Numbered from the stretch's first letter, positions 3,420 to 55,430 are shown. The stretch is DNA of 64,000 nt from Vulcanimicrobiota bacterium (GCA_003158175.1 PMHJ01000024.1:15316-79315); one strand, 5' to 3'. Program-made: numbers and translations. The notes: a model not told the origin generated them from the sequence alone.

Positions 3420-3458
3420 ACGTTCGCCCACAAGATATGCCGTGGGGGAGACTTACCG

Positions 3459-3902: not shown

Positions 3903-3919
3903 TGGTTATCGGCCGCTAA

Positions 3920-5346: not shown

Positions 5347-5364
5347 CCCGAACCGGCAGAGGAC

Positions 5365-9698: not shown

Positions 9699-9745
9699 TG
9701 CTGCGCCTGTTGCCCGCGCGCCGCGCCGCTGCCTTCCGATCTACG

Positions 9746-11290: not shown

Positions 11291-11349
11291 CTGCGCGCCG
11301 CGACGCCGCCGTCTAGGGGTCGCGCTTCGCGGTCAAGAATGCGCCAGCC

Positions 11350-11946
11350 GTGAATTGGGAGGCGATAAGCGTTTGGGCGCAGGTTGCGACCGCAGTTGGA
11401 CAGCTCGGGACGTTCGTCGTGGTCGGCGGCAGCGTCATCGCCGCGCTCGTTCAACTGCGGCATATGCGCGGCGGCAATCAGTTGCAGGCGCTGCTGTCAC
11501 TCGAGCACGATTTTCGCGGCCCCGAACTGCAGGCGGCGCTCACCTACGTTCAAGAGCATCTGCCGCAGCGGTTGGAAGATCCGGCGTACCGTCGGGATCT
11601 AGATCAGCTCGGGTTTATCGATCCGGGGATGCATCCGGAGATGGTGGCCTGCAACTGGCTCAATGAAATGGGCACTTTGGTCAAGCGAAATCTGGTTTCA
11701 GAAGACACCTTTATGGATCTTTTCGGCCGATTAATCGTACATTGCTGGAAACACCTATCGCCGGCCATCGCCATCATGCGGCGCAAACGCGGCCAAGCGC
11801 AGTACCACGACTTCGAGTACTTGGCGGTACGAGCGGAAGCGTGGCTCCAACGAAATCCGCAGGGCACGTCGCCGCGGCCATTTGCCCGTGCGAAGGTTCC
11901 CGATCCTTGGCTGGCGTTGGATACAGCGCCGGGCGCAGAGCGCTAG
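11350..11946 (+). CDS. Hypothetical membrane-anchored protein (possibly DUF4760-like)
   Basis: 198-aa ORF with a GTG start and one N-terminal TM helix (VATAVGQLGTFVVVGGSVIAALV). I recognise no catalytic motif. Confidence 0.5.
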   Translation: MNWEAISVWAQVATAVGQLGTFVVVGGSVIAALVQLRHMRGGNQLQALLSLEHDFRGPELQAALTYVQEHLPQRLEDPAYRRDLDQLGFIDPGMHPEMVACNWLNEMGTLVKRNLVSEDTFMDLFGRLIVHCWKHLSPAIAIMRRKRGQAQYHDFEYLAVRAEAWLQRNPQGTSPRPFARAKVPDPWLALDTAPGAER

Positions 11947-12138
11947 GAAAACTAAGCCGCCTTTAAGGCCATGCGGGAATCGGCCATAACCCACGAGAGA
12001 ACCTGAGCGCAAAAAAGCCCTTCTCCACAGATTGCACAAGACCAATGTCACAGGTTGTGGACAATATCCAAGAGGCCGGATGTAGCGGGGCGTTCAAAGG
12101 ACCGCCGTTACAGGTCCGTTACTGCATAGGAGAAATCA

Positions 12139-13089
12139 TTGAAACTAGCGCTCGCTCGGATTGCGGCGACGCTCGCCGCGCTTGCCTCGCTAGGTGCCTG
12201 CTCCCACGGAGCCTCCCAGGCGGCGGCCTCGGCGCAGCCAGGCGCCGCCAGGACGGCGCATAAGACGATCGGCGTTTCGATCCAAAATCGTGAGGCGCAA
12301 TTTTACCAGGATATGGAATCCGGCATGCGTGCCGAGGCCGCGAAAGACGGCTACGCCCTCGTTGTCGTGGACGCCAGCCGTGACAACGCGCGCCAACAGA
12401 GCCAAGTCGAAGATTTTATCTCCAAGCACGTCGATGCCATTGTCCTGACGCCGTACGATTCGGCGGCGATTGGCAGCGCGATCGCCGAGGCGAACGCCGC
12501 GAAGATTCCCGTCTTCACGGCGGACATTGCGAGCACGAGCAGTCAAGGGCATGTGGTAGCGCACATTGCCAGCGACAACGTGCAGGGTGGATTTGAGGCA
12601 GGCAAACTGATCTGCACGGCCGTCGGAAAGAGCGGCGCTATCGCAATCGTCGACGAGCCCGAGGTAACCAGCGTTCAGGATCGCGTCAAAGGCTTCAAAC
12701 AAGCGATCGCGCAGCTCTGCCCGGGCGTCACGATCGTTGCCGACGTCGATTCGGGTGGAACGCGCGATAAGGCGAGCAGCGATACCGGCGACATTCTGCA
12801 AGCGCATCACGATCTCAAAGGCATCTTTGGAATCAACGACGATTCGGCGCTCGGCGCGCTCGCTGCGGTTCGCGCCGCCGGGCTAACCGGAAAGGTTGCA
12901 ATCGTTGGTTACGACGCGACGCCCGAGGCGCGGCGCGCAATTGCAGCCGGCGAAATGTACGGCGATGCCATTCAGTATCCGGTCAGAATCGGTTCGACGA
13001 CGATTGACGTAATCCGCGATTACTTCGCCGGGAAGAAGCCGCCGGCGTTCGTCAAGATTCCCGTCGGCGCGTTTACGAAGTCCCCATAG
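12139..13089 (+). CDS. Sugar (ribose-type) ABC transporter substrate-binding lipoprotein
   Basis: AGGAGA SD followed by TTG. Lipobox LASLGAC. Periplasmic-binding-protein type I sequence (IGVSIQNREAQFYQDM...). Confidence 0.85.
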   Translation: MKLALARIAATLAALASLGACSHGASQAAASAQPGAARTAHKTIGVSIQNREAQFYQDMESGMRAEAAKDGYALVVVDASRDNARQQSQVEDFISKHVDAIVLTPYDSAAIGSAIAEANAAKIPVFTADIASTSSQGHVVAHIASDNVQGGFEAGKLICTAVGKSGAIAIVDEPEVTSVQDRVKGFKQAIAQLCPGVTIVADVDSGGTRDKASSDTGDILQAHHDLKGIFGINDDSALGALAAVRAAGLTGKVAIVGYDATPEARRAIAAGEMYGDAIQYPVRIGSTTIDVIRDYFAGKKPPAFVKIPVGAFTKSP

Positions 13090-29493: not shown

Positions 29494-29610
29494 GTGTCAT
29501 GCTCTCCCAATGTCATCCTGAGCCTGTCGAAGCATGATGGTGCCTCTCGGTCATCCTTCGACAGGCTCAGGATGACACCGGGAGAGGCTCAGGATGACAC
29601 CGGGAGAGAG
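29494..29610. repeat. Two convergent copies of the GTCATCCTGA repeat family forming a perfect 21-bp inverted repeat
   Basis: GTCATCCTGAGCCTGTCGAAG at 29511-29531 and its exact reverse complement at 29555-29575. Two tandem GCTCAGGATGACACCGGGAGAG units follow at 29564-29607. Confidence 0.9.
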
Positions 29611-31606
29611 AGTGTGCTGCTCTCAGGCCTTCGTCGAATGCGCGGACCGCATTGAGTTCCGCAGCGTCTTTGGCACCCCCCACGACTCTATAAGGAACCC
29701 CGAGCGCCGCAATCGGTGCTAGGAGCGCGTCGTTACGCTCTTGGCCGGCGGCGATCACGACCGTGTCCGCTTCGATCAAGCGCGCCGTGCCGCCGGCATC
29801 GCGAATTCGAATGCCGCCCGGTACGATGGCTTCGTAGCTGACGTTGGGAAGCGTCGCAACACCGGCCGCACGCAATGCGGCGATCACGGTCCAGCGCGTC
29901 GTCTTGCCGATGCCCTTGCCGATCGTCGCACCGCGGCGCAGGAGCGCGACCTGTTTTCTTCCAGTCACGAGTAAAGCACCGTTGCCCGGTGCAGCCAGAC
30001 CCTGCTCGTAAAGAAAGCGCGTCGTTTCGTCGACGTTCGCTTCGCCGAAGCTCAAGTAGTGTGCGACGTCGACGCCGATTCCGCCGGCACCGACGATCGC
30101 GACGCGTTCGCCGACCTCCGGATTGCCGAGGAGCAACTCGGCGTAGGTGAGCACGTGGGGAAGGTCGCTTCCGCTCAAGGGTGGCCGCCGCGGCAGCACG
30201 CCCGTCGCGAGCACGATCGCGTCGAAACCACGCAACGTCGCCGCGTCGGAGCAGCGGCTGCGTAACCGCACGACGACGCCGAGTCGAGCCAGCTCGTTGG
30301 TAAAATAGCGGATCGTTTCGTGAAAGTCGCGTTTGCCCGGAATGCGGCACGCCATGCGGAACTGGCCGCCGAGCTCGTCCTCTGCTTCGAAGAGCTCGAC
30401 TGCGTGTCCGAGCGCGGCTAAGGCACGCGCGCTCTCCATTCCCGCGGGTCCTCCGCCGACGACGGCAAAGCGGCGACGCAACGCTTTGGGCGGCGGCTCC
30501 TCGGGAAACTCTAGCTCGCGCGCCGCGCGCGGGTTGACCATGCACGAGACCGGCGCGTCCACTAACGACCGGTCAATACAAGCCTGATTGCACGCGATGC
30601 AGGTGTTGACAAGTGCCGCTTCGTTGCGCGCCGCCTTGGCGACGATGTTTGCGTCGGAGAGAAAGGGACGCGCCATCGAAATGAAATCAACGCTTCCGGC
30701 TGCGAGGGCGAACTCGGCGGCCTCCAGCGAGTTGATGCGATTGCTTGCGATGACCGGCAGCTCGCCGACGGCGCCTTTGACCGCGCCGGCAAACGGAATC
30801 CAAACGCCGCTGGGAACGACTTGCTGAACCGTCGGAATCGACGATTCATGCCAGCCGATGCCGACATTGAGCGCGTCGACGCCGTCGCCGGCCAGCGCCG
30901 CTGCAAACGACAGCGTCTCATCCGCGGTCGTCGAGTCTTTCATCAGGTCGGCGCCGGAGATGCGGAAGATCACGGGAAACTCGGTGCCGGCAAGCGCGCG
31001 GATCTCGTGCAGCACCGCACGTGGGAGACGCATGCGCCGTTCGAGATCGCCGCCCCAGGCATCGTCACGGCGGTTCGTCAGCGGTGAAAGAAACTGATTG
31101 AGGAGATAACCCTCCGACGCCATCACCTCCACCGCGTCGAATCCCAGATCCCTGGCTGCAAGGGCGCCTCGCGCAAAGTCGCCGATGGTTTCGAGAATCT
31201 CGCCTTCACTCAGCGCGCGCGGCGGATCCGGTGAAAAGCGCGACGGAATTGCGGACGGCGCGACCGGCGCAATTCCGAACGATGCAAAATACGCGTACCG
31301 CCCTGCGTGGAAGAGCTGCAGTGCAATCCGGCCGCCGGCGGCGTGCACGGCCTCGACGGCGCCCCGCAGCGGCGCGCTCGATTCCGGTTCGTTGATGAAG
31401 CTGTAGTTGCGGCCGCCGGCGCCCGCTCGATTGACGCACGAGCCTCCCGTGACGATCAACCCCGCGCCGCCGCGAGCGCGCTGGCTATAGAATGCGGCCA
31501 GCGCGGCGCCGTCGGATTCGATTCCTAGATGCATCGAGCCCATGACGATGCGATTGGCAAGGCGCAGCGTGCCGATGACTCCGGCTTGCAGCGTGCGTTC
31601 GAACAA
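29567..31606 (-). CDS. NADPH-dependent 2,4-dienoyl-CoA reductase (OYE-like FMN domain + FAD/NAD(P) domain), AnsM/PlmM-like
   Basis: LFERTLQAGVIGTLRLANRIVMGSMH aligns with the E. coli FadH N-terminus. 4Fe-4S Cys motif CIACNQACID. C-terminal dinucleotide folds VVGGGPAGME and IVGAGGIGVD. TTG 31606 lies 5 nt after the upstream stop. Confidence 0.85.
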   Translation of the reverse strand: MFERTLQAGVIGTLRLANRIVMGSMHLGIESDGAALAAFYSQRARGGAGLIVTGGSCVNRAGAGGRNYSFINEPESSAPLRGAVEAVHAAGGRIALQLFHAGRYAYFASFGIAPVAPSAIPSRFSPDPPRALSEGEILETIGDFARGALAARDLGFDAVEVMASEGYLLNQFLSPLTNRRDDAWGGDLERRMRLPRAVLHEIRALAGTEFPVIFRISGADLMKDSTTADETLSFAAALAGDGVDALNVGIGWHESSIPTVQQVVPSGVWIPFAGAVKGAVGELPVIASNRINSLEAAEFALAAGSVDFISMARPFLSDANIVAKAARNEAALVNTCIACNQACIDRSLVDAPVSCMVNPRAARELEFPEEPPPKALRRRFAVVGGGPAGMESARALAALGHAVELFEAEDELGGQFRMACRIPGKRDFHETIRYFTNELARLGVVVRLRSRCSDAATLRGFDAIVLATGVLPRRPPLSGSDLPHVLTYAELLLGNPEVGERVAIVGAGGIGVDVAHYLSFGEANVDETTRFLYEQGLAAPGNGALLVTGRKQVALLRRGATIGKGIGKTTRWTVIAALRAAGVATLPNVSYEAIVPGGIRIRDAGGTARLIEADTVVIAAGQERNDALLAPIAALGVPYRVVGGAKDAAELNAVRAFDEGLRAAHSLSRCHPEPLPVSS

Positions 31607-31611
31607 CGGAG

Positions 31612-32415
31612 TTACAGCGAGAGCGGCGGCGTGGTGTCGGAGTAGAACGGCGGCGCGATGACGCTCAAACCGCCGTCGACGCAAATCGTCTGACCCGTGA
31701 TGTACTCGGATTCCGGCGAGAGCAGGAAGGCGATCGTGTCGGCGACTTCTTGGACGGTCCCCATGCGCGCTTTCGGAAGCTTCGAGAGAACGCTTTCGAT
31801 CGGCGCCATTCCAGGGACGTTTTTATAGAAATAGGCGCACGATTCGGTGTCGATCAGCCCACCATTGATGGCGTTGACGTTGATCCCGCGAGGCGCGAAC
31901 TCGACGGCCATATAGCGTACCCACGCTTCGAGCGCCGCTTTGTTCGAACCGAGGTTCGCGTAGGTCGGATAGGCACGAATGCTGCCGTAGCTCGAGAGCA
32001 CCGCGATGCGACCACCCTGCGTCATCAGCTTCACCGCGCGTTGCGCTCCGAGAACGAAGGCGCGTACGTTGAGCGCGAAGGAGCGGTCGAGATTGTGCGC
32101 CTTTAAGTCCGCAACTTTCTTGAACGCGCTGGCCGCGGCATTGGAGACGAAGTGGTCGAGGCGGCCAAACTCGCCTTCGACCCGGTCGAAGAGCCGGTCG
32201 ATCGCTTCGGGCTCTTCCATATTCGCCTGAACGGAGATCGCTCGCGTGCCTAGCGATTCAATCTCACGCACGGTTTGCGCGGCAAGATTGGCGTTACGAT
32301 TGTAGTTGACGACGATCGACGCGCCCTCGCGCGCCAGCGTCAACGCCAAAGCGCGCCCGATCCCGCGAGAGCTGCCGGTGACGAGCGCGATCTTATCCTC
32401 GAAGCGCCGCCTCAC
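31612..32415 (-). CDS. SDR-family enoyl reductase, FabL / ChcA (1-cyclohexenylcarbonyl-CoA reductase)-like
   Basis: [10 protein letters not shown] cofactor motif. [33 protein letters not shown] shows Tyr-x6-Lys spacing, typical of FabI/FabL enoyl reductases rather than YxxxK. GTGA overlap with the upstream gene. Confidence 0.8.
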
Positions 32416-33584
32416 GCGCCGGTTCCCCCGCCGAGGAGCGCGCGAGCGATGACGGTCTTTTGAATCTCGTTGGTACCCTCTTCAAAACGTTGAGCGCGTG
32501 CGTCGCGATAGACGCGCTCGATGGCGTTGGGCTGCCAATATCCCGTGCCGCCGTGAATTTGAAGAGCTTTGTCGGTAACGCGAGTAAGCATCTCGACGGC
32601 CTGCAGCTTCGACATTGACGAGAGCATCGCGGCACGGGAACTGCCGGCTTCCCATTGCGTCGCGGCATGAAGTACTAACTGGCGCGCCGCCTCGATGTCG
32701 GTTGCATTCTCTGCGATCATGAAGCGAATTGCTTGGCGCTGCACGAGCCGCTTGCCGAACGTCTCGCGGTTGCCGGCGTATTCGATCGCCAGCTCTTGTG
32801 CTCGCCGCGCGAGGCCGACGCACGTCATTGCAACCGAGATTCGGCTGGGCGTCAAAAATCCGCCGAGCGCGATCTCGAGTCCTTGCCCTTCCTCGCCGAG
32901 TCGATTCTCTACCGGGACCGGCGTGCGGTCGAAGGTAAGGCGTCCGTGATCGGTTCCCCGCACACCCATCGACTCGTCCATCTGCATCACGGTGGCTCCC
33001 GGAGCGTGACGATCGACGAGCAGCGCGACCGTCCCGTCGCCACCGCGTGTCCCGGCGAGCCTCGCGAAGAGCAGCCAGTAATCGCAGATCGTTCCAAACG
33101 TGATGAGGTGCTTCTCGCCGCTCAAGTAATAGGTGTCGCCTTCGCGAACGACACTGCAGCGAAGATCGGCTCCGGTTCCCGCCGTCGGCTCCGTCAGCGT
33201 AAACGCAATCCTCAGCTCGCCTTTGATCGACGGAATCACGAATGCGCGGCGCTGCTGCGGCGTAGCAAAGCGGTCCATCGCCCGCCACGTGCCGTTGACG
33301 ACGTGCACGATCATCCGTATCGACGCATGCGACATGGAAAAGAGCTCGATCAGGCGGAGGTAGCGGGTGAACGGAATGCCGCGACCGCCATACTCGGTTG
33401 GGGCCGCCAGCGAAAGGTAGCCGCGATCGCGCAGCTCGTCCCAGAGCTCGAGTGGAACTCGGCGTTCGTTCTCGATGCGTTGTGCCCACTCTTCGGCGGG
33501 TCCGGCAACGTATGCGGCGATCTCGCTCTCGAGCGCCGCAAAGGCGGCTTCGTCGAAGATCTCGGGCCGGTCGAGCTGCTTCAA
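32412..33584 (-). CDS. Acyl-CoA dehydrogenase
   Basis: ACAD three-domain layout. C-terminal [17 protein letters not shown] places the catalytic Glu in context. TTG 33584 overlaps the upstream stop (TTGA). Confidence 0.88.
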
Positions 33585-36500
33585 GAGACGCTCGCCTTGC
33601 CGCGTTCGTGCGGTCGCAACTCTCTCGCTCGCTCGCGGAGCAGAAATTTCTGAACCTTCCCCGACGGCGTACGCGGAAGTTCGCCGACGATCTCCAGCCG
33701 CTCCGGCCAATAGTGTTTGGCGGCCTGGCACGCGTAAAGATAGTGCTGCATCCGGTCGAAATCGAGCTGTGCGCCGGCGCGCAGCACGACGAAGGCGCAG
33801 GCACGTTCGCCTAAGCGCGGATCGGGCATTGCGACGATCGCGATTTCGGCGACTGCCGGGTGATCGCTCAGCAGTTGTTCCATCTCGCCGACCGGAATTT
33901 TTTCACCGCCGCGATTGATGACGTCGCGTACTCGTCCGGTGATGCGAACGTATCCCGATTCGTCAATGACGCCGAGATCGCCGGTGCGAAACCAGCCGTC
34001 GGGCGTGAAGGCTGCCGCAGTCCAGTCGGGGTGATCGGCGTAGCCCACGAACATCGTCGGAGATTGCACTTCGAAGTGCCCTTCTTGCCCGGGCAACATC
34101 GTGCGGCCCTCAGCGTCGGCGATTCGAAGGTGAATTCCACGCAGTGCGCGCCCATCCGTTCCCCAAACCTTCGCCGGTTCGTCGGTCGGTGCGGAGAGCG
34201 ATCCCAAGCACGACTCGGTGGTCCCCCAAGCCCCGCAAACCGCCGTGCCGAGAATGCGCGTCGCACGTTCGGCCAGCCCGCGCGGCACCGCAGCGCCCGT
34301 TGCAACGAAGATGCGCAAAGCAGCCGGAGCGCGTTCGCCGCCCTCAACGGCCGCAACGAGATCGGCCAAGAACGGTGTGGCGGCCTGCACGAACGTGCCG
34401 TCCCAGTCGTTGAGCGCCCGCAGTGCGCGTGACGCGCTCCAGACCGGCTGCACGATCTGCGGAACTCCCATGAGCAACGCGAGCCACATTCCGTAGAGAA
34501 ATCCGGTTTGATGAGCGAGCGGAGACGGAACGAAGATGCGGTCCTCCGCTCGCAGGCCAAGATGCTCGATCTCCATTGCCGCGGCGCGCATCAGCACGTC
34601 ATTACGATGCAGTACGCCTTTGGGCTCGCCCGAGGTTCCGGAGGTGAAGAGCAGCTGCGCGATCGCTTCGGCATCGCTCGGCTGCGCGTCGAGCACCTTC
34701 CGATCGACCTCGATCGTGCGCAACGCGTCTTGGTAGCGCAGCCAGCGTACGGTGTCGTCGTAACCGGGCGTCGGAAGAGCGTAGGTGTTGCGCGCGCCCG
34801 CGCACACGACGACGTGCTCCAGCTTCAGCGGAAGATCGCCGCTAAAAACGGAGGCCTCCTGCAGAATGGACGCGATCTCCTCGGCGTGATTGCGGCCGCG
34901 CGCTTCATCGGGAACGAAGAGAACGCGCGCTCGGGAACGCCGCAGGCAAAAGGCGACTTCGCGTTCCCGGAAGATTGGCATCAGGGGGCAGCAGACGGCG
35001 CCGACGCGCAGCGTCGCAAGGGAAATAACGACGAACTCCAGGGTGTTGGGTAGCTGGTACGCGACTCGTTCGCCCGGACGTACGCCCAAACTCAGAAGAA
35101 GCGTGGCGGTGCGTTCGACTCGCTCGAGCAGCTCTTGCCAGGTGAGAGCGACGTCGCTTCCCTCGCGGGTTTCGACAACGGCGAGGCCGAGTGGGGTTTC
35201 GCGTGCGTGGTGCGCGAGCAGCTCGCCCAACGTCATTTGCGCGGCTCGATCGGGTTTTGGCATCGCCGCCGCCCGCGCTGCCGAATGCTGACCGTTGTGC
35301 GGCCCGTCGGAGATCGATAGCGAGACGCCGATGCTTCGCATCGCATCCAGAAAGCGAGGATACGAGATCCGGTACGCATTCGGATAAGTCAACGTACTCT
35401 GTCCCTGCGCGCGGGATGCGGCGACCGCCAACGACATCAATATGCGGTGATCGTTGAAGGACGAAAGATGTGCGCCTTGAAGCTCCGAGACGCCGTGCGC
35501 GACGAGCCGATCGTCGTGCAGCTCCAAGTGGCCGCCCATGCGATTGAGTTGCAGCATTGCGGCGACGCGGTCGGATTCTTTGAGGCGCACGTGTGCGATA
35601 TTTTCCAATACGGTTTCACCTTTTGCGAACGTGCCCAGCGTCGACAAGATGGGCAGCATGTCTGGAATGTCGCGGCAATCGACTCGAACTCCGCGCAGCT
35701 CGATGCCGGCGTGCCGTACGCGAACGGCGTGCGCCTGCGCGTCATACGCCATCGGGAGCCCCATCTCCCGAAGGATCTCCATAAATGCCCCCTCGGGATG
35801 GTCGGGAAGTTCTCCGGGCAGCGCTTGCAGACCGCGAAAGAGCACGTCCGAGGGATGGAGGGCCGTCGCGGCGAGCCCGAACGCGGCCGAGCCGATGTCG
35901 GGCGGCAGCTCGAGCGTCGCCGGACGCGGCCGCTGTCCGGGCTCGACCTCGAAACGCCGCCAATCCGGCGCGATCCTTACGTGCAGATCGAAAGCGCGCA
36001 TCATCTCGGCCGTTAGCGCGATATACGGGCGCTCGTTGAGTTCGCCTTCGACCTCGATGATCGTCGGTTCTTTCGTGAAGGGAGCCAGCAGAAGAAGGCC
36101 GGAAATCCACTGCGATAAGGTGCCGGGGATGACGATTTTCCCGCCGCGCGGCTGACCCGGAAACACGGTAATCGGCGGACAACCGCTGTTCGATTCGAAC
36201 GCAACGCCCATCTGAGAGAGCGCCGCAAGCAGCGGTCCGACGGGACGGCGCTGAAAATATTTTTGGGCGGTTAGCGTGACGGGCGAATCGGCGAGCGATG
36301 CCAACCCGATCATGAAATATAGCGTCGATCCGGAGCTGCCCACCGATACGACCTTGCGCTTGACGTGATAGGGGCCGCCCGCCACGAGCAACGTCTGGCC
36401 TTCCACCTCGATTTTCGTACCGAGCGCGCGCAACACGTCCATCGTGAACTGTACGTGACGAGCATCCGAAAGGCCGAGAATTCGGCTCGTTCCCGGCGCC

Positions 36501-36601
36501 AGCGACGCGAGAATGAGCGCGCGGTGCGCGTGATATTTCGAGTTCGGAACCTCGACCTCGCCGGTCAACGGCCCGCTCGTTCCTTTAACGAGAAGATTCA
36601 T
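33581..36601 (-). CDS. Fusion protein: EPSP-synthase (AroA)-like domain + AMP-dependent acyl-CoA synthetase/ligase
   Basis: Residues 1 to about 440 are EPSPS-fold (PNSKYHAHRALILASL, LKESDRVAAM, FNDHRILMSLA). Residues from about 450 to 1006 are an adenylate-forming enzyme (LLFTSGTSGEPKGV, GWFRTGDLG, PRTPSGKVQK). Confidence 0.9.
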   Translation of the reverse strand: MNLLVKGTSGPLTGEVEVPNSKYHAHRALILASLAPGTSRILGLSDARHVQFTMDVLRALGTKIEVEGQTLLVAGGPYHVKRKVVSVGSSGSTLYFMIGLASLADSPVTLTAQKYFQRRPVGPLLAALSQMGVAFESNSGCPPITVFPGQPRGGKIVIPGTLSQWISGLLLLAPFTKEPTIIEVEGELNERPYIALTAEMMRAFDLHVRIAPDWRRFEVEPGQRPRPATLELPPDIGSAAFGLAATALHPSDVLFRGLQALPGELPDHPEGAFMEILREMGLPMAYDAQAHAVRVRHAGIELRGVRVDCRDIPDMLPILSTLGTFAKGETVLENIAHVRLKESDRVAAMLQLNRMGGHLELHDDRLVAHGVSELQGAHLSSFNDHRILMSLAVAASRAQGQSTLTYPNAYRISYPRFLDAMRSIGVSLSISDGPHNGQHSAARAAAMPKPDRAAQMTLGELLAHHARETPLGLAVVETREGSDVALTWQELLERVERTATLLLSLGVRPGERVAYQLPNTLEFVVISLATLRVGAVCCPLMPIFREREVAFCLRRSRARVLFVPDEARGRNHAEEIASILQEASVFSGDLPLKLEHVVVCAGARNTYALPTPGYDDTVRWLRYQDALRTIEVDRKVLDAQPSDAEAIAQLLFTSGTSGEPKGVLHRNDVLMRAAAMEIEHLGLRAEDRIFVPSPLAHQTGFLYGMWLALLMGVPQIVQPVWSASRALRALNDWDGTFVQAATPFLADLVAAVEGGERAPAALRIFVATGAAVPRGLAERATRILGTAVCGAWGTTESCLGSLSAPTDEPAKVWGTDGRALRGIHLRIADAEGRTMLPGQEGHFEVQSPTMFVGYADHPDWTAAAFTPDGWFRTGDLGVIDESGYVRITGRVRDVINRGGEKIPVGEMEQLLSDHPAVAEIAIVAMPDPRLGERACAFVVLRAGAQLDFDRMQHYLYACQAAKHYWPERLEIVGELPRTPSGKVQKFLLRERARELRPHERGKASVS

Positions 36602-36680
36602 CTAACGAGATTCATCGGCGTCCTACCTCAAGGCGGCGGATGCAAACTTCCGGTTTAAATCGGAGCGCCCTGCTCGCTGC

Positions 36681-37895
36681 TCATCGCGAGATAACTAGCG
36701 ACGCGTTCTGTCCGCCGAAGCCGAAGGCGTTCACTTGAAAGACGCCGTAGCGATGCGAGCGCGGGCGTTCCATCACCAAGTCGAAACGCGTCGCCGGATC
36801 GAGTCGCTGCGTTCCGATCGTGGGCGGAATACACTCTTCGTGCATCCCCGCGATACCAGCGACGGCGCACATCGCGCCTGCGCTGGCCATGCTGTGGCCG
36901 ACGTGCCCTTTGATTGAGGTGACGATTGCCGGGCGATCGGCGTAAACGGCGTCGATCGCCTTGGACTCAGCAGCGTCGCCGACGATCGTACCGGTCGCGT
37001 GCGCGTACACGACCGCGCATTGTTCGCCTGCATCGCCCGAGCGTTCGATTGCATCTTGCATCGCGCGCACTTCGTAGCGCGCCGACGGGTCGGGCGACGT
37101 AATATGATAGGCATCGGCGAGCGAACCGTAACCCCGAATGCGCGCCAGCACGCGCGCTCCGCGCTCCAACGCCCGTTCGATGCGTTCCAAGACCAGAATC
37201 GCGGCGCCATCGCCCATAACGAATCCGTCACGGTCGACGTCGAAGGGTCGCGACGCCTTGGCGGCATCGGTGTTGCGCGAGAGCGCGCCTGCACGAACGA
37301 GGCTTTCGTACACCAGCGGACTCAAGAGCGTTTCGCAGCCTCCGGCAATTGCCGCGTCGATCTCGCCTCGCTCGATCATGCCCGAGGCCAAGCCGATCGC
37401 ATCGAGCGATGAGGCGCAGGCCGTGCTGATCGCGAGTTGCGGCCCGTGCAGGTTCCAATGCATCGCGATCAGTGCGCTTGGCATATTCGGAATGACCAGG
37501 GCCATCAGTTTCGGCGTCACGGTACGACCGCCGGATTCGAGTAGGCGCGTCTGCGCTTGCGCGACGAGAGGAAAGCCGCCCATCGTATTCCCCACGATGA
37601 CCGCGGTTCGCTCGGCGGGCGGATCGAGCCGTGCCTGCCCGAGCGCTTCGGTGGTCGCGACCATCGCGAACTGCGTGAAACGGTCTGTATTTCGCAAGGC
37701 GGCCGGTGGGATTGAGCTGCGATCTAAAAAGTCGTCCGCGACCGCCGCCCAAAGCTCATTTCCGGAAACCTTCGGCCCCGAAACCTTTATCGGAGCAATT
37801 CCGCACTTGCCCTCGAGTAAGTGTTGCCAAAAGACTTCGGTTGCCGTACCGATCGGCGATACGATCCCCATTCCGGTGACCGCGACGTGCTCCAC
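36681..37895 (-). CDS. Beta-ketoacyl-ACP synthase (KAS I/II, FabF/FabB-like)
   Basis: Cys-His-His triad contexts ISTACASSLDAIG, YAHATGT and GHVGHSMASAG. 404 aa. Confidence 0.9.
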   Translation of the reverse strand: MEHVAVTGMGIVSPIGTATEVFWQHLLEGKCGIAPIKVSGPKVSGNELWAAVADDFLDRSSIPPAALRNTDRFTQFAMVATTEALGQARLDPPAERTAVIVGNTMGGFPLVAQAQTRLLESGGRTVTPKLMALVIPNMPSALIAMHWNLHGPQLAISTACASSLDAIGLASGMIERGEIDAAIAGGCETLLSPLVYESLVRAGALSRNTDAAKASRPFDVDRDGFVMGDGAAILVLERIERALERGARVLARIRGYGSLADAYHITSPDPSARYEVRAMQDAIERSGDAGEQCAVVYAHATGTIVGDAAESKAIDAVYADRPAIVTSIKGHVGHSMASAGAMCAVAGIAGMHEECIPPTIGTQRLDPATRFDLVMERPRSHRYGVFQVNAFGFGGQNASLVISR

Positions 37896-37943
37896 GGCGC
37901 TCTGATTGCGGGAGCGATACGGGAGGCGCCTGCCGGGCTGGGC

Positions 37944-38915
37944 ATGAGGGAGGGAGCATGCGTCGAAGCGAGGATGGTGGAGCGAGGGGTAAACGTACCG
38001 CAGTCGTACCGCCTAGTGCGGCGTGACGCGCGGGGCGAGCGAACAATCGTACGTCTGAGGAACGGCGCCACTTTTGGCGGCGATGAGATCGCCATTTGCG
38101 CCGGCCCGTGCGGAGTCGAATCGCGCGAACAGCTCGAAACGGCGGCGGCCGCGGTGGCCGCCGCAGGAGCCAACGTCCTGCGGGGCGGCGCGTACAAACC
38201 GCGTACCTCGCCGTACTCCTTCCAAGGGCTCGGCGAAGAGGGGCTCAAGATGTTGCGCGATTCCGGCGATCGGCACGGCTTGGGCGTCGTTACCGAAGTG
38301 CTGGATCCGCGTGATGTCGAGAGGGTCGCGCGCTACGCGGATATGCTGCAGATCGGCGCGCGAAACATGCAGAACTTTCCGTTGCTGCGCGAAGTCGGCG
38401 GCCTGCGCATGCCCGTGCTTCTAAAGCGCGGTCTCTCGGCAACGGTGCAAGAGTGGCTGCTCGCCGCGGAATACGTGATGCTCGGCGGTAACGAGAGCGT
38501 CGTTTTGTGCGAACGTGGCGTCCGGTCTTTTGATCCCGCGACTCGCAACCTGCTCGACATCGCCGTCGTGCCTTTGCTCGAGGAAATGACGCATCTTCCG
38601 GTTATCGTCGATCCGTCGCACGCGATGGGGATCGCGCGTCTCGTTCCGCCGATCGCGGTGGCCAGCATCGCCGCCGGCGCGCACGGCCTTCTCATCGAAG
38701 TCCATCCCGATCCGGCCAACGCACTCTCGGACGGCGCTCAATCGCTGGATTGCGATCAGTTCGCGCTGCTCATGCGGCGATTGGCTGCCGTTGCAGAGTT
38801 TGCCGGACGCCGGCTTCCGCAGCACGTAAAACCCTCCGATGCCGCGCGTTCGAACGGTCAGCGTGAAGCCGACGGCGCCGTGCGATCGAGCAAGAGCGGC
38901 GTAAGGCTGGCGTAG
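37944..38915 (+). CDS. 3-deoxy-7-phosphoheptulonate (DAHP) synthase, type I-beta
   Basis: GPCGVES, LRGGAYKPRTSPYSFQGLGEEGLKML, LQIGARNMQNF, VIVDPSH. The start is ATG 37944 or ATG 37974. The 5' part of ORF 37821.. overlaps the KAS start. Confidence 0.88.
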   Translation: MREGACVEARMVERGVNVPQSYRLVRRDARGERTIVRLRNGATFGGDEIAICAGPCGVESREQLETAAAAVAAAGANVLRGGAYKPRTSPYSFQGLGEEGLKMLRDSGDRHGLGVVTEVLDPRDVERVARYADMLQIGARNMQNFPLLREVGGLRMPVLLKRGLSATVQEWLLAAEYVMLGGNESVVLCERGVRSFDPATRNLLDIAVVPLLEEMTHLPVIVDPSHAMGIARLVPPIAVASIAAGAHGLLIEVHPDPANALSDGAQSLDCDQFALLMRRLAAVAEFAGRRLPQHVKPSDAARSNGQREADGAVRSSKSGVRLA

Positions 38916-49680: not shown

Positions 49681-52600
49681 CTAGATTTTTACCTGTGCGT
49701 TGAAGTAGAGGTTGATCGGTGGCGCTATCGCTCCGATCGATCCGTTGTTTGCGCCGCCCGACGGGAGGTAGCTCTGCGTCCACGGCGTGCTCGCCTTGTT
49801 GGCCGCCCGGTCGCCGATGCCGGTGCCGTTGTAGAAGTTGCCGGGATAGAGGGTGCTGTTGAGCACGCCGCCGTCCGGCGCGTAGGCGCAGGCCACATTA
49901 CTCGGCGGATTTGCCAGCGTCCACGGCTCTTGCGTTCCACCGAAGCAGACGTGGAACAGGCCCGCGCCGAGCAGCGTTAGGCGAATCCGAGGGGTCACGT
50001 CGTAGGCGATCTGAAGGTTTCCGACGACTGAGTTGGGCTGCTCGATGTTATCGAACGCGAACGAGCCGGTCTGGAAGTTCGGCGTGTACAAGTAGCCGTA
50101 CGTACCCAAACCGGGGGAGCCCGCGTAGAGGTAGTTGCACTGTTGCGGGTTGGCCTTCGGCGAGAGCTTCGTGATTCCGGTCGTCGCCGAGTTCAGAATG
50201 CAGGAGCGCGGATCGTAGCCGTTGTTGTCCAGCGGAGTGCCGTAGAAACCGCCGCTCTGGAAGGAGAAGCTTGGCGTGATCGCCAGCTTATCGTGTCGCC
50301 AGTTGAGGATCAACGACGAGACGTACGGCGAGATGTAGCTGACGAACGAACCGTTGAGACTCGGCGCGATCGCAGTTGAGTAGGGATTGTACCAGCCACC
50401 GAGATTCAAGAGTCCCTGTGATGGAAGGTTGTAGTACGGGTTGAGGATCGTATCGTAACCTTTCAAGATCTTGCCGTTGCGAGTGTTGCACGGAACGCCG
50501 ATTCCGTCTTGGTAGCAGGGATGTCCGCCGCCCGCTTTGGTCAGCAAGTTGTACTGCGAGATGACCCCGTTGAGGACGGTGAGCGGATTGGGGATGATGC
50601 CGCCGGTCGAGAGCGGCACGTTCTGGAACATGACCTTCGAGTTGGTATACGTGAAGGCCAACTGTCCGGAGAGCCCGTTGCGGGTGAAATCGCCCTTGGT
50701 GAACTCAAACTCCACACCTTGGTTGCGATTGACGCCGACGGGAATCTGCGTGGCGAAGTTGGAGCCGATAAACGTTTGTTGCTGCCAGTTCGAGACCCAG
50801 GTGTAGAACGGCGTGAGCTTAAAACTCATGTCCGTTCCGCGAAAGTGCTGCTCGTAGGAGAGATCGTACTGCCCCGACGAGACACCCGGAATCGGATGGA
50901 ACGGCGAGTAGAATCCGAGGTTCATCGTGTTGTTCCAAACCGAGCGTTCGTCGCCGGATGAACTGAGGTACTGTACCGACGCGGAGATCGGCGGCTGCGT
51001 GTAGCGCCCGGCCGAGACGCGCCAGACGACGTCGGGCGATTGCGAATAGGTCGCCGAGAAACGCGGCTCCCAGTAGTTGAGCGTGTACGAGTTGGGCGAG
51101 GACGCCGTGAAGTTCGGCGCCGCGACGCCGTTTTGCGTCGTGCCGTTGGGATGGACCCAGCCGGTGTGGGGACCCGCCGGGTGAAGGACCGCGGCTGCGG
51201 TGTCGCAGCTTCCGTTAACGTACTGGGCATTTGCCGGCGGCGGTTGCCCTGGCGGCAGCAGTTGCGTGAGCACTTGGTTCGTCGGTGCGTAGACGCAAGT
51301 GTAGTTGGCGGTCATGTTCGCGTAGAACTCGTCGGCCGCAGTCGCCGAGTCGGGCAGCTTATACGTGAAGTTGTCGTAGCGAATCGCCGCATTGATCAGG
51401 ATTTTATCGTTGGGGCGGAACTGATCGGCAAGCGAAGCGTTCACGAACTCCGGTTTAACCGAGTTGTACGAGCCGCTCGCATTGCCATTCCAGAGACTAT
51501 CCCACTGCGCACCAGCCTTGGCGGCCGGTGAGCCCGGGGCGCCGTACCCCGCTGGGCCGCCGGAAGCTACGCCGGTCCAGGTCGGCACGACGTTGCATTG
51601 CGGAGCCGCCTTTTTTGCACAGTTAAAATACGAGGATCCGGTGCCCCCTGTGAGGCTCGTATCGTAGTAGGTGGGCGCGTCCAGGCAGATCTGCTTGGCG
51701 CCAGTCGTGGGATCGTAACAGGTGAATCCACCTGCCGACCGAGCCATGTAGCCGATTGGGGAATCGTTGTCGGCCGCCGAGCCGTTGTTCCAGCGGATGA
51801 CGCCGGCGGTCGTGTAGTTGCCGTCAGCCGTCAGGAGATTCTGGTCGTTGAGCTGGTCTTGGAAGTCCAGCGCGCCGCCGGAGGTGTGCGTGACGAGCTG
51901 GTATTGTGCGTTTGCAGGTAGTGACGGGACGCCGTCTCCCGTTGCGCCCGCGATCGGGTTATTCTCCAGCCAATCCGAGTAGAAGGTGTAGCCGTAGGCT
52001 CGCAGATAGGCCGATTGGCTTAGTGCGTAGGTGTACTGCAGCTTGCTGATGCCGGCGTCGTTCCGAATGCTCCCTTCCGAGTTGTCGTTGAGCGGAATCG
52101 GGCCGTTAAACGCGTGGGCCGGCGTGTCGGGAACCATATAGACGCCCGGCGACCGGACGGTCCCCGTGCCGGTCTTATAGTTGTACGCGCTAATCGGAGC
52201 GCCGAATGGAACGTTGTAGGCAACACCGTCGGCATATCCCAGATAGGTCGGTCCGCAGGCGAGCGTCCCAAGAGTGGTCGAGGGACACGTATATGGACCG
52301 GGCGGCAAGCCAAGACGCTGCAGATAGAACTGGTTCGGCTGCAGAAAAGAAACGATCTGACCAACTCCCGAGCATCCGTTGACGGTGAGGCCGGGGCCGA
52401 CCGTCTCCGGACCGCAAGTCGGAGCCGCAGCCCGCGTTCCGTATGCCCCCCAGATGAACTGGTTGTTGCCCGGTCCTTCGTCATCTGGGCTGTTATAACC
52501 GTAGTTGTTGAGCGCTGATCCGCTCCATAGGACCTGGACGTCGTCGCGCAATCCGTTGGCTTTGGGGATGCCCATGTGCAGGTTGATCACGCTCTCGCGA

Positions 52601-53751
52601 TCCGTGACTACCGATGGGTCGCCGGCAACGCCGCTGTAGTACTGCCAGCATCCTTGGTCTGGGAAGCTGAACTTCGGTCCGTACAATTGACAGATGGGCT
52701 TCACGCCTTGAGCGGTGCCAAAAACCGCGGTCGGTGACGTATCGTACACTTGAGCGCTCAGGAGGCCGTAGCCGAGCAACGTACCGTCGACATCGCCCGA
52801 GAAGAAGCCGCCCGGGGTCATGTATCCCGCGCCGTTGGTGCTGTCGAAGAAACGCGATTCTTGATTGTAGCCTAAAAGGCCGACGTAGTAGCTGAAGTTA
52901 CGATCGGGGGTCGAGCCGCCGATCTCGACGCTCGCCTGATGGTAGAACTGCGGCGTCGCGATCCCCAGGTTGGCCGTCGCGAAGCCCGGGAAGGTACCGG
53001 TCTTGATCACCTGGTTGATAAAACCGGCGGTGCCGGCCGAGGCAACCGAGGAGGGACCGCCGCCGGTGTAGACCTGCAACTCGGAAAGACCGAGGCTCGA
53101 TTCGGTTCCGGAGTTGTAGTTGTCGAAGGAACGGTTGATGGGGATCCCGTCATACTCGAAGCCCGTGTAGTACGAGTTTTGGCCGCGAATGTAGGCCGCG
53201 TTGAAATCCCAGCCCATCCCTCCCTGCGACGTTTGGATGCCCGGGACCGACGCCATTGCCGAGTAGGCGCTGTTGAGGTTTCCGCCGCCGCCAAGCGCCG
53301 CCGCAGCCGCGGCTTGCGCTGAGTTGACGCTGTAGAGATCGCCTCCGACGCCGGATTTTACCAGCGACGAGCCGGCTTGCGACGTCACCGACGCGATCGT
53401 TTTGAGCGACTTGCTCAGCGTGAAGCTGACTTGTTGAGTTTGATCGGCAAAAACGACCGTTCCGCCAATGGATACGCTCTGGTAACCGAATTTGCTTAGG
53501 CTAAGCGTATAGGTGTCCGGTGCGAGCGAGAGCAGGGTGAAATGGCCGCCGGAATCGGTCGTTGCCGTCGCGCTCTGCGACGGCGATTCGGCTTTCACGC
53601 TTACTCCCGCTAGGGGCGCTCCCGTGTTATCGCGGACGGTGCCGTTCACGTTTCCGGTGACTCCTGCCAGTGCCCATGTTTCCTGGAACAGGAAGGCGAC
53701 CAGAAGCGCAACGGCGACGCTCGTAAAACGGAGCGTTCGTTGCTGTTTCAT
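49681..53751 (-). CDS. Oar-like TonB-dependent outer-membrane receptor with an N-terminal carboxypeptidase-regulatory-like domain
   Basis: Signal peptide, then GNVNGTVRDNTGAPLAGVSVKA...TDSGGHFTLLSLAPDTYTL (CarboxypepD_reg). A plug-like region and about 1100 aa of Gly/Tyr/Asn-rich beta-barrel sequence follow. Confidence 0.8.
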   Translation of the reverse strand: MKQQRTLRFTSVAVALLVAFLFQETWALAGVTGNVNGTVRDNTGAPLAGVSVKAESPSQSATATTDSGGHFTLLSLAPDTYTLSLSKFGYQSVSIGGTVVFADQTQQVSFTLSKSLKTIASVTSQAGSSLVKSGVGGDLYSVNSAQAAAAAALGGGGNLNSAYSAMASVPGIQTSQGGMGWDFNAAYIRGQNSYYTGFEYDGIPINRSFDNYNSGTESSLGLSELQVYTGGGPSSVASAGTAGFINQVIKTGTFPGFATANLGIATPQFYHQASVEIGGSTPDRNFSYYVGLLGYNQESRFFDSTNGAGYMTPGGFFSGDVDGTLLGYGLLSAQVYDTSPTAVFGTAQGVKPICQLYGPKFSFPDQGCWQYYSGVAGDPSVVTDRESVINLHMGIPKANGLRDDVQVLWSGSALNNYGYNSPDDEGPGNNQFIWGAYGTRAAAPTCGPETVGPGLTVNGCSGVGQIVSFLQPNQFYLQRLGLPPGPYTCPSTTLGTLACGPTYLGYADGVAYNVPFGAPISAYNYKTGTGTVRSPGVYMVPDTPAHAFNGPIPLNDNSEGSIRNDAGISKLQYTYALSQSAYLRAYGYTFYSDWLENNPIAGATGDGVPSLPANAQYQLVTHTSGGALDFQDQLNDQNLLTADGNYTTAGVIRWNNGSAADNDSPIGYMARSAGGFTCYDPTTGAKQICLDAPTYYDTSLTGGTGSSYFNCAKKAAPQCNVVPTWTGVASGGPAGYGAPGSPAAKAGAQWDSLWNGNASGSYNSVKPEFVNASLADQFRPNDKILINAAIRYDNFTYKLPDSATAADEFYANMTANYTCVYAPTNQVLTQLLPPGQPPPANAQYVNGSCDTAAAVLHPAGPHTGWVHPNGTTQNGVAAPNFTASSPNSYTLNYWEPRFSATYSQSPDVVWRVSAGRYTQPPISASVQYLSSSGDERSVWNNTMNLGFYSPFHPIPGVSSGQYDLSYEQHFRGTDMSFKLTPFYTWVSNWQQQTFIGSNFATQIPVGVNRNQGVEFEFTKGDFTRNGLSGQLAFTYTNSKVMFQNVPLSTGGIIPNPLTVLNGVISQYNLLTKAGGGHPCYQDGIGVPCNTRNGKILKGYDTILNPYYNLPSQGLLNLGGWYNPYSTAIAPSLNGSFVSYISPYVSSLILNWRHDKLAITPSFSFQSGGFYGTPLDNNGYDPRSCILNSATTGITKLSPKANPQQCNYLYAGSPGLGTYGYLYTPNFQTGSFAFDNIEQPNSVVGNLQIAYDVTPRIRLTLLGAGLFHVCFGGTQEPWTLANPPSNVACAYAPDGGVLNSTLYPGNFYNGTGIGDRAANKASTPWTQSYLPSGGANNGSIGAIAPPINLYFNAQVKI

Positions 53752-53999: not shown

Positions 54000-55430
54000 A
54001 TGGCGGTATCGCCGATGGAGCGACAAGTACTGCGGCTGTTACACCGCGTCAGGAAACCCGACGCGCTGGCGGCTACGCCGTTGATGGCTTCGGTCTGCCT
54101 GCAAACCGGAATGGCGAATCCGGTCGGTGCGCTCGAGCGAATCGTCAAAGCCGCGCTCGCCGGGGACGACGAACGGACGGAGAAGCTACGCAGCGCGATC
54201 TTCGACGCGGATTTTAGGCGGGCCACGAGCAACGCGGAGCTGGCGCGACTCAGCGGCGTCTCTCGGCGTCATTTTCAGCGCCGGCGGGCCGAGGCCGTTG
54301 CTTCTATCGCTCAGTACGCAGGTGGACTGCTGAAATCGTGCCGCGAGAGCCGCTCGTCGCGCAACGATCGTTCGTGGCGTTTCCGACGAGAGGTTGCCGC
54401 ATTTCTCGACGCTCGCGACCGCGGCAACGCCCTCGAGATGCGCTGCGTTTCTAATAATCTCGTCCGTTTGGCGGAGGATGCCGAGGCCACAACACTCGCC
54501 AGGTCGTTCCTGCGCGACGCGAATCTGCGCCTCGGCATAACGGAAGCGGGATTCGAGCCTCACGAGAGCCCGTTGCCGCAAACGCTTTCATCTCGTTCCT
54601 GGGTCGGGATCGCAAAAGAAGTCGAGCGTGCGCGTCAACTCGTGCTCCGAGATGGGATGGCGCAGGCCGAAACGTTGGCGTCGTCGGCCTGGAAACGTTC
54701 CGAGCTGCGCGGTTTCCAAGGCTTGGCTGCACGCGCGGCCGCCGTCCTCTCTGCGACGGCGTTGGCTCGCGGCGGGTTCGCGGAAGCGCGATCTTGGCGG
54801 GCGCGGGCGATCGAGCGTCTTCTCCCGACCCAAGATCGCCTTTTGGCCGTCGGCCTCTTTCTTTACTCGGCGTACGACGAGCGACGCTGCATGGACCGCG
54901 CGCTGGGCGACGTGCTCTACGAGCGACTGTGCCTGATCGTGCCGCAAATGCTCGGCGATGGCGAACGGCAGCGCGCCGCCGTCACCGCCTTGGTCGCCGC
55001 GCTTTTTGATGCGCGGGTCTTGCCGAGCGCGATTGCGCCGGTTGCGCAAAGCGATTCGGCCTTCGCGCATTACGCCGAGAAAAACGCGGAACGCATCGCC
55101 GAGATGCTCGCTCTGGCGCTGATGGCGTTGACCGGAGTCTCCTGGGACGCAGCCTTCGACGGTCTGCGAATAACGCTGGCGGATTGCGCGTCGAAGCTCC
55201 GACCGGCGGCCCCGCGAACGATCTCAATTACGGTACCTAAGTCACAATCGGCCGCCATCGATCATTTGAAGTTTGATGATCAACGCTCAGGCAGGGTCGA
55301 AGATCTCGCCGGTCTACACATTCGGCTCCTTCCGCTTCGATCCGACACGGGGGCTGCTCACACACGGCGCCGCCGTGACCCCGTTACCGGACCGCCTGGC
55401 GCAGTTGCTAGTTCTGCTCATTCACGCTAA
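54000..55430 (+). CDS. Hypothetical protein, possibly regulatory (helical)
   Basis: 476-aa ORF. The N-terminal ELARLSGVSRRHFQRRRAEA looks HTH-like, and the rest is helical and Ala/Leu-rich. The last ~50 codons overlap the next gene and look like low-complexity read-through. Confidence 0.5.
   Translation: MAVSPMERQVLRLLHRVRKPDALAATPLMASVCLQTGMANPVGALERIVKAALAGDDERTEKLRSAIFDADFRRATSNAELARLSGVSRRHFQRRRAEAVASIAQYAGGLLKSCRESRSSRNDRSWRFRREVAAFLDARDRGNALEMRCVSNNLVRLAEDAEATTLARSFLRDANLRLGITEAGFEPHESPLPQTLSSRSWVGIAKEVERARQLVLRDGMAQAETLASSAWKRSELRGFQGLAARAAAVLSATALARGGFAEARSWRARAIERLLPTQDRLLAVGLFLYSAYDERRCMDRALGDVLYERLCLIVPQMLGDGERQRAAVTALVAALFDARVLPSAIAPVAQSDSAFAHYAEKNAERIAEMLALALMALTGVSWDAAFDGLRITLADCASKLRPAAPRTISITVPKSQSAAIDHLKFDDQRSGRVEDLAGLHIRLLPLRSDTGAAHTRRRRDPVTGPPGAVASSAHSR

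Follow-up and report, generated by a model that had tools for sequence, protein, structure and literature searches.

The 64-kb window analyzed here (the whole stretch of 64,000 nucleotides PMHJ01000024.1:15316-79315 from the Vulcanimicrobiota bacterium assembly GCA_003158175.1) contains a six-gene chromosomal module with the predicted capacity to make cyclohexanecarboxyl-coenzyme A (CHC-CoA). Five genes run from 37895 to 29567 on the minus strand, and a sixth, coding for a DAHP (3-deoxy-D-arabinoheptulosonate 7-phosphate) synthase, is transcribed divergently from the plus strand. The operon is headed by a gene for a FabF-like β-ketoacyl synthase (KAS; 36681-37895; 404 amino acids) with the N- and C-terminal ketoacyl-synt domains of Pfam. 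This is followed by a gene for a 1006-amino-acid fusion protein (33581-36601), in which a 5-enolpyruvylshikimate-3-phosphate (EPSP) synthase-like domain and an acyl-CoA ligase (AMP-ligase) are joined in a single open reading frame (ORF) with matches to PF00275, PF00501, and PF13193. Next come genes for an acyl-CoA dehydrogenase (ACAD)-family flavoprotein of the PlmL/AnsL type (32412-33584; 390 amino acids; three ACAD domains), a ChcA-type enoyl-CoA reductase of the short-chain dehydrogenase/reductase (SDR) family (31612-32415; 267 amino acids; adh_short_C2), and a 2,4-dienoyl-CoA reductase of the FadH/old yellow enzyme (OYE) type, resembling PlmM and AnsM (29567-31606; 679 amino acids; Oxidored_FMN and Pyr_redox_2). 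An earlier note on this DNA had described these six genes, and its coordinates and domain contents are borne out by the ORFs, Pfam, NCBIfam, and independent gene calls, the last made on two public contigs of identical sequence and in agreement with the ORF list of the window. The start/stop overlaps that it had reported, TTGA between the fusion and ACAD genes and GTGA between the ACAD and SDR genes, can be read directly in the sequence, and the spacer between the SDR and FadH-like genes is 5 nucleotides (nt) long.

The host, an uncultured bacterium of acid soil, is a member of Candidatus Cybelea within the Eremiobacterota/Vulcanimicrobiota (formerly WPS-2), which agrees with the earlier impression that it is not an actinomycete. 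The nearest relatives of the fusion protein (75 to 97% identity) come from metagenome-assembled genomes (MAGs) named Candidatus Cybelea, Baltobacteraceae, or Eremiobacteraeota/Vulcanimicrobiota, and the next relatives (62 to 68% identity) come from a MAG labelled Vulcanimicrobiaceae and then from actinomycetes. As had been stated, the module is flanked by housekeeping genes, namely those for ArgRS, DprA, SurE, MsrA/B, L21, TrmD, and L19, and the GC content is even throughout the module region. None of the scanned ORFs of the window codes for a polyketide synthase (PKS), a nonribosomal peptide synthetase (NRPS), an acyl carrier protein (ACP), or a further fab or aro product, and the claim that no PKS or NRPS gene lies adjacent holds for these ORFs.

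The four genes downstream of the KAS gene form a cassette that is collinear with a gene set of Streptomyces platensis (L087), in which the fusion, ACAD, SDR, and OYE genes are located directly after a type I PKS gene and before a LuxR regulator gene; the identities are 62, 62, 64, 64, and 51%. The published order of the phoslactomycin genes, which this locus matches, is pnB, pnP1 to pnP4 (plmJK, plmL, chcA, and plmM), and pnR1 (PMC5852498). The phoslactomycin subclusters (plm of Streptomyces sp. HK803 and pnP1 to pnP4 of S. platensis SAM-0654) encode the same four proteins as the window, in the same order and with the same fusion. Both the assignment of the window genes to CHC-CoA synthesis and the comparison of the fusion to plmJK are therefore supported by these collinear homologues (51 to 64% identity), among which pnP1 (plmJK) corresponds to the fusion gene, and the best relatives are genes of CHC-type cassettes and not generic β-oxidation enzymes. 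The two settings differ in that a type I PKS cluster encloses the Streptomyces cassette, whereas the window has no PKS gene among its scanned ORFs and carries a FabF-like KAS gene at the operon head. Likewise, the DAHP synthase encoded near the S. platensis cassette is a type II, nonorthologous enzyme, while that of the window is an apparently unregulated type I-beta enzyme encoded divergently.

Other Streptomyces pathways fit the same pattern. The asuB1 to asuB4 genes of the asukamycin cluster were assigned to the formation of cyclohexylcarbonyl-CoA (PMC12720273). The ansatrienin (ansJKL-chcA-ansM) and asukamycin genes provide the same enzyme functions as the window genes but belong to pathways for polyketide starter units. 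We take the Streptomyces collinus genes to be named ansJKL-chcA-ansM and to be unfused. Asukamycin is reportedly primed by KAS III-type enzymes, whereas the enzyme encoded in the window is of the FabF type. Proteins of the fusion family from Streptomyces sp. XZQH13 and Streptomyces rishiriensis, both of which we assume to be ansatrienin/mycotrienin producers, were among the homologues of the Streptomyces fusion protein. A further fusion protein, 77% identical to the Streptomyces query, is labelled Streptomyces avermitilis (P0327); doramectin production by this species presumably depends on CHC that is fed or supplied by engineering, and the record may derive from a misnamed strain or from an engineered one.

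The EPSP synthase-like domain (35297-36601, minus strand; PF00275, 279 bits) is only 28% identical to Escherichia coli AroA and differs from it at eight contact or motif positions, in line with the view that it is not a fully canonical aroA product. It narrowly passes the AroA model TIGR01356 (310 bits versus a cutoff of 287) and retains the E. coli AroA positions K22, R27, R124, D313, K340, E341, R344, H385, and R386. Residues Y23, S94, Y100, F101, E197, H336, and I411, together with a deletion of position 169, take the place of S23, N94, R100, P101, S197, N336, K411, and S169, respectively, so that seven residues are substituted and one is deleted. Substrate contacts were assigned to E. coli AroA positions in line with structure papers on that enzyme, and several of the changed positions presumably contact the 3-phosphate of shikimate-3-phosphate in the E. 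coli structures. All eight positions of this signature agree among the window, S. platensis, Streptomyces F-5630, Herbiconiux, and the MAG labelled Vulcanimicrobiaceae, and the signature is nearly identical in two distant cassettes. Since it is common to the cassettes examined, we regard the domain as an AnsJ/PlmJ-type paralogue and not as a canonical AroA, despite its narrow pass of the aroA model. The folds and catalytic residues of canonical AroA and FabF are nevertheless shared with the EPSP synthase-like domain and the KAS, respectively. If the changed positions do contact the 3-phosphate, the domain would be expected to bind an unphosphorylated shikimate derivative.

The ACAD-family protein, the SDR, and the FadH-like reductase have intact catalytic motifs. 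The ligase domain of the fusion (33581-35269, minus strand; PF00501 and PF13193) is a predicted shikimoyl-CoA synthetase. Its top NCBIfam match is cyclohexanecarboxylate-CoA ligase, with a score (451 bits) that lies under the cutoff of 792, and the JGI annotation gives the same name to the fusion protein; the domain is 62% identical to the orthologue from the S. platensis plm cluster and 48% identical to a ligase from Alicyclobacillus cellulosilyticus. The ACAD-family protein retains the catalytic Glu within FEEGT and shares 64% identity with the S. platensis orthologue and 58% with that of A. cellulosilyticus. Cyclohexane-1-carbonyl-CoA dehydrogenase is its second-place NCBIfam name (198 bits versus a cutoff of 650), and based on its relatives the protein is predicted to act as a flavin adenine dinucleotide (FAD)-dependent dehydratase on shikimoyl-CoA intermediates. 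The SDR matches FabL best in NCBIfam (262 bits, under the cutoff of 328), and its closest solved relative is Bacillus subtilis FabL (3OIC); the Tyr-x6-Lys motif pointed out in the earlier note is present as Y-ANLGSN-K, and the identity to the product of the gene at the chcA position in S. platensis is 64%. The FadH-like reductase contains a 4Fe-4S motif (C336-x2-C-x3-C-x11-C355) and two GxGxxG dinucleotide-binding motifs and is 51 and 53% identical to the S. platensis and A. cellulosilyticus orthologues, respectively.

When one genome per GTDB species was searched in a pattern scan, 242 loci were found to encode a relative of the EPSP synthase-like domain. The best 80 of these 242 come from approximately 72 Eremiobacterota species and from Solirubrobacterales, Conexibacter, Actinocatenispora, Microbacterium, Streptomyces, and Microlunatus. 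The gene content of the loci was mapped by tblastn, and 64 Eremiobacterota loci have enough upstream sequence for the genes preceding the cassette to be scored. All four downstream functions were found as single clean matches in 54 of 60 loci, and the EPSP synthase-like domain is conserved together with the other cassette genes everywhere. The gene order is kept in relatives, and its recurrence in more than 60 species-level genomes shows that it reflects more than chance. The divergent DAHP synthase gene is present in all of the 64 loci and an intact KAS gene in 61 of them. Both genes are kept with the cassette in the MAG labelled Vulcanimicrobiaceae (L004), even though its flanking genes are unrelated, and in another MAG (L092) the KAS gene is located at the operon tail with the linkage to the DAHP synthase gene preserved despite the rearranged order. 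Taken together, this suggests that the DAHP synthase and the KAS are functionally linked to the CHC-CoA cassette. The actinomycete loci consist of the four- or five-gene cassette alone, with the exception of those from Microbacterium STN6 and Streptomyces NRRL F-5630.

In an unbootstrapped neighbor-joining tree, the fusion proteins of the Eremiobacterota form a sister group to those of the actinomycetes. A recent transfer from Streptomyces was considered and rejected, because the GC content is uniform, more than 60 species share conserved flanks, and the Eremiobacterota proteins are sister to, and not nested within, the actinomycete ones in this unbootstrapped tree. In a search of 50%-identity representatives, NRPS adenylation domains dominate beyond the first few dozen matches. 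We also noticed fused and unfused EPSP synthase-like and ligase genes in gammaproteobacterial MAGs of the Rhodanobacteraceae (P0366, P0383, and P0136). The fused forms are 61 to 63% identical to the Streptomyces query, which points to a transfer of the cassette across phyla. Another locus (L091; JGI 3300044686, 717-12539) has a cassette without KAS or DAHP synthase genes whose products are 61 to 77% identical to the window proteins; it lies 2 to 5 kb from plsX and a fakA-like gene, possibly a lipid metabolism neighborhood.

The KAS has the Cys-His-His-Lys active-site residues and a GFGG motif, and its TACAS, AHATGT, and KGHVGH motifs align with the catalytic motifs of Thermus thermophilus FabF, to which the window protein is 41% identical. 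At the level of the family, identities are 62 to 66% within the Eremiobacterota and 38 to 41% to T. thermophilus FabF. The score against the fabF model TIGR03150 (376 bits) falls short of the cutoff of 494, the name given by PGAP is merely the generic "synthase family protein," and among the scanned ORFs of the window the gene is located outside any fab/acpP operon. A protein database search with the KAS returned solely Eremiobacterota orthologues (74 to 96% identity), with neither a housekeeping FabF paralogue nor relatives from outside among the matches. Judged by these comparisons, the KAS is a divergent paralogue of KAS II. Since its gene has been deleted in some genomes, it is not the sole elongating KAS.

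Side observations at several loci concern the ketosynthase gene. In one Eremiobacterota genome (L074, 9307-9945) a 212-amino-acid KAS remnant with an internal deletion of approximately 200 amino acids has lost its catalytic core, and in a second (L070, 9900-13950) the KAS and ACAD genes are both lost, from which we conclude that the module is decaying in these two genomes. A different FabF-like KAS gene follows the cassette in Microbacterium STN6 and Streptomyces NRRL F-5630, in the latter together with a gene for a second AMP-ligase. Orthology of these proteins to the Eremiobacterota KAS was rejected, since the identity between them is 35 to 38%, which is below that of either to canonical FabF. 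A distant CHC-type cassette in a MAG (L089; GCA_021792015.1, JAJYVM010000025.1, 3830-13589), with a fusion protein that is 50% identical and with no SDR gene seen, adjoins genes for a FabH-like KAS III, a 3-hydroxy-3-methylglutaryl (HMG)-CoA reductase, and an AurF-like protein, and it may encode the synthesis of a different cyclohexyl-primed product. The different FabF-like KAS genes in Microbacterium and Streptomyces and the KAS III gene in this distant MAG indicate that condensing enzymes were recruited to such cassettes several times independently.

The DAHP synthase gene (37974-38915, plus strand) codes for a protein of 313 amino acids by gene call; an alternative in-frame ATG at position 37944 is the start that the earlier note had given. 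Its assignment there to type I-beta, divergent from the operon head, is confirmed by the coordinates and by the NCBIfam scores, which are 421 bits for PRK08673 (cutoff, 335) and 368 bits for TIGR01361 (cutoff, 268); in Pfam the protein matches DAHP_synth_1. The best solved relatives are the DAHP synthases of Aeropyrum pernix (1VS1; 324 bits), Thermotoga maritima, and Pyrococcus furiosus. Neither an N-terminal ACT/ferredoxin-like nor a chorismate mutase regulatory domain was detected in Pfam or in the alignment with the structural relatives, and since homology runs from residue 58 of the T. maritima enzyme, past its N-terminal regulatory domain, and from the called start codon of the window gene, the protein is a bare catalytic barrel. 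Unadorned DAHP synthases are well established from archaea, and by analogy with these the enzyme is probably not feedback inhibited. Such an unregulated enzyme would suit a dedicated precursor supply.

In light of these data, synthesis of CHC-CoA by the cassette is well supported, by comparative evidence that includes the gene content, order, and overlaps, the collinearity with S. platensis, the shared signature of the EPSP synthase-like domain, and the intact catalytic motifs. In the pathway that we propose, the divergent DAHP synthase, having no regulatory domain, would raise the flux into the shikimate pathway. By comparison with the orthologous genes for phoslactomycin, ansatrienin, and asukamycin, shikimoyl-CoA would then be produced by the ligase domain of the fusion, the ACAD-like flavoprotein would perform the dehydrations, and the ChcA-type SDR and the FadH-type reductase would reduce the double bonds to give CHC-CoA. 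The EPSP synthase-like domain would take part as a conserved paralogue whose pocket no longer looks fit for shikimate-3-phosphate. The steps assigned to the ligase and ACAD proteins are suggested by this orthology and by the title of a paper by Skyrud et al. (ACS Catal 2020), which is said to describe a reconstitution. From the genomic context, CHC-CoA would finally prime type II fatty acid synthesis, with the FabF-like KAS of the operon catalyzing, on the housekeeping ACP, the condensations of initiation or early elongation, and the product would be ω-cyclohexyl membrane fatty acids, plausibly a trait for acid tolerance.

On balance, we favor the view that the module synthesizes CHC-CoA and feeds it through its own ketosynthase into ω-cyclohexyl fatty acids. 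The lipid fate of CHC-CoA and the role of the ketosynthase are parts of this view that we infer from the setting of the genes and from organisms with PKS-free homologues. A. cellulosilyticus contains ω-cyclohexane fatty acids (PMC5023266), and the genus Herbiconiux was reported to contain cyclohexyl-C17:0 (PMC10011130). A. cellulosilyticus has PKS-free, clustered genes for a ligase (48% identity to the window protein), an ACAD (58%), and a FadH-like reductase (53%); no EPSP synthase-like gene was seen adjoining them on a contig that ends inside the neighboring gene. Herbiconiux solani (Microbacteriaceae) has a complete, unfused, PKS-free five-gene set (43 to 69% identity). These organisms belong to phyla other than that of the window host, and a literature search found no paper tying their genes to the cyclohexyl lipid. 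The PKS-free homologues, the core-genome position of the module, and the linked ketosynthase make ω-cyclohexyl fatty acids the likeliest product, and the same product, suggested in the earlier note, gains support by this analogy.

Several points weigh against a lipid fate that runs through the operon's own ketosynthase. The Alicyclobacillus and Herbiconiux gene sets, unlike the window, have no adjacent KAS or DAHP synthase gene, and the KAS is not strictly required, since 3 of 64 genomes have lost it or carry it in degraded form but retain most of the CHC genes. FabF-type enzymes normally use acyl-ACP and not acyl-CoA, and genes for an ACP, FabH, or an acyltransferase are missing from the module. 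Furthermore, V. alpinus, the only cultured member of the phylum, has iso-C14:0-type fatty acids, with no cyclohexyl acids reported; it was not among the matches of the pattern scan and may simply lack the cassette. Our literature search found no paper connecting Eremiobacterota with cyclohexyl compounds. A broader version of our proposal is that in Baltobacteraceae/Ca. Cybelea, abundant inhabitants of acidic peat and boreal soils, ω-cyclohexyl fatty acids make up much of the membrane, with a dedicated FabF-derived ketosynthase priming or elongating the cyclohexyl-acyl chains. Such a role is usually assigned to FabH, and we regard this broader version as possible, though somewhat less likely than not.

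Alternatively, the cassette could make CHC-CoA while the KAS and the DAHP synthase are mere housekeeping neighbors, namely the FabF and the only DAHP synthase of the genome, in which case CHC-CoA would enter lipids via FabH, as is assumed for Alicyclobacillus, or would serve no lipids at all. The fully canonical FabF active site of the KAS, the core housekeeping character of the flanking genes, the Alicyclobacillus and Herbiconiux gene sets with no adjacent KAS, and the persistence of the cassette where the KAS is lost or degraded would all fit this explanation. However, the KAS scores well below the fabF cutoff (376 versus 494 bits), is only 38 to 41% identical to canonical FabF, and was not given a FabF name by PGAP. 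If the KAS were the sole and essential FabF, its gene could not have been lost or truncated in the way seen in L070 and L074. Moreover, the KAS and DAHP synthase genes stay linked to the cassette across changed flanks (L004) and a changed gene order (L092). We therefore consider this alternative unlikely.

It is also conceivable that CHC-CoA serves as a starter or acyl donor for a specialized metabolite, such as a polyketide, an acylated lipid, or a glycolipid, whose other genes are located elsewhere in the genome, with the KAS as a dedicated priming ketosynthase of this product and not of bulk membrane fatty acids. All experimentally characterized uses of the cassette in the literature that we reached are polyketide starters (phoslactomycin, ansatrienin, and asukamycin), and the genes beside the cassettes of the distant MAG (KAS III, HMG-CoA reductase, and AurF-like) and of Streptomyces NRRL F-5630 (KAS and second AMP-ligase) point in the same direction. 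In contrast, the examined ORFs of the window include no PKS, NRPS, ACP, cyclase, or tailoring gene, the GC content is uniform across the region, and the module, with its conserved place in the core genome of more than 60 species, is more readily understood as a primary or membrane trait than as an accessory biosynthetic cluster, so that we hold such a role to be quite unlikely as well. A catabolic operon for degradation of cyclohexanecarboxylate, shikimate/quinate, or related alicyclic (naphthenic) acids as CoA thioesters, as could be read from the NCBIfam names of the ligase (best match) and the ACAD (second match), from the JGI label of the fusion protein, and from the Rhodopseudomonas palustris AliA/AliB-BadK/H/I pathway, in which an acyl-CoA ligase and an ACAD likewise act on alicyclic CoA esters, is highly improbable, as the scores lie far under the equivalog cutoffs, the enoyl-CoA hydratase, hydroxyacyl-CoA dehydrogenase, and Ali/Bad-type ring-cleaving hydrolase genes of such a pathway are found neither in the module nor in its flanks, and the genes have their orthologues in an anabolic cassette within a PKS cluster and are linked to those for a biosynthetic DAHP synthase and a ketosynthase.

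Two intergenic regions of the module may be of regulatory interest. The divergent region between the KAS and DAHP synthase genes (37896-37973; 48 to 78 bp, depending on the DAHP synthase start) is presumed to be a shared promoter/operator; a promoter scan found no σ70-like consensus and an Rfam scan no family within it. The 79-nt spacer between the KAS and fusion genes contains a conserved DNA motif, GCAGGGCG-N14-GGAAGTTT (36644-36673, minus strand), which in an alignment of the spacers of 62 loci takes the form GCAGGGCG-N13-15-GGAAnnTT across approximately 60 loci. L074 has retained the motif; L070 and L092 lack it. An RNA structure for this spacer was considered and rejected, as RNAalifold gave no consensus structure for the 62 loci (-0.13 kcal/mol), and the element was therefore read as a DNA motif. 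For the CHC genes, it may serve as an internal promoter or operator.

At the start of the fusion gene itself we noticed a 14-nt tandem duplication (36598-36615, minus strand), which reads ATGAATCTCGTTAG followed directly by ATGAATCTTCTCG. It places a 5-codon mini-ORF (MNLVR*) after the ribosome-binding site, and the TGA of the mini-ORF shares nucleotides with the true start codon (ATG) of the gene. Both public assemblies of the population carry the duplication, and none of seven aligned close relatives does. At the other end of the module, the DAHP synthase gene and the convergent surE gene overlap tail to tail by approximately 55 to 58 nt (38858-38915), as they do in most Ca. Cybelea loci. 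Scans of the region for Rfam families and tRNAs gave no match, and the number of terminator-like matches in the region (13) is not above the shuffled expectation. Elsewhere in the window, a 1356-amino-acid ORF (49681-53751), in a stretch with a raised GC skew (0.14), has an N-terminal CarboxypepD_reg domain as its sole recognized domain, and the adjoining ORF of 476 amino acids (54000-55430) has no Pfam match.

In summary, the new element here is that a known cassette is coupled, in a conserved manner and without a PKS, to a FabF-like ketosynthase of its own and to an apparently unregulated DAHP synthase. The ω-cyclohexyl fatty acids serve as biomarkers and are regarded as characteristic of thermoacidophilic Alicyclobacillus and of a few actinomycetes; to our knowledge, the genes behind the cyclohexyl lipid, unlike those for the polyketide starters, are poorly documented. 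The module described here offers a candidate cyclohexyl-specific ketosynthase for the engineering of alicyclic fatty acids, as well as many diverse sequences of the EPSP synthase-like domain for mechanistic work. It places a conserved, predicted PKS-independent CHC-CoA pathway in a phylum that is mostly uncultured and occurs commonly in peat and acidic soils, and it leads to a testable prediction on the membrane chemistry and acid tolerance of its carriers. If the broader version of our proposal is true, these bacteria would be a second source of ω-cyclohexyl lipids, phylogenetically unrelated to the first and dominant in the environment, and the module would provide a genetic marker for such lipids in soils and sediments.

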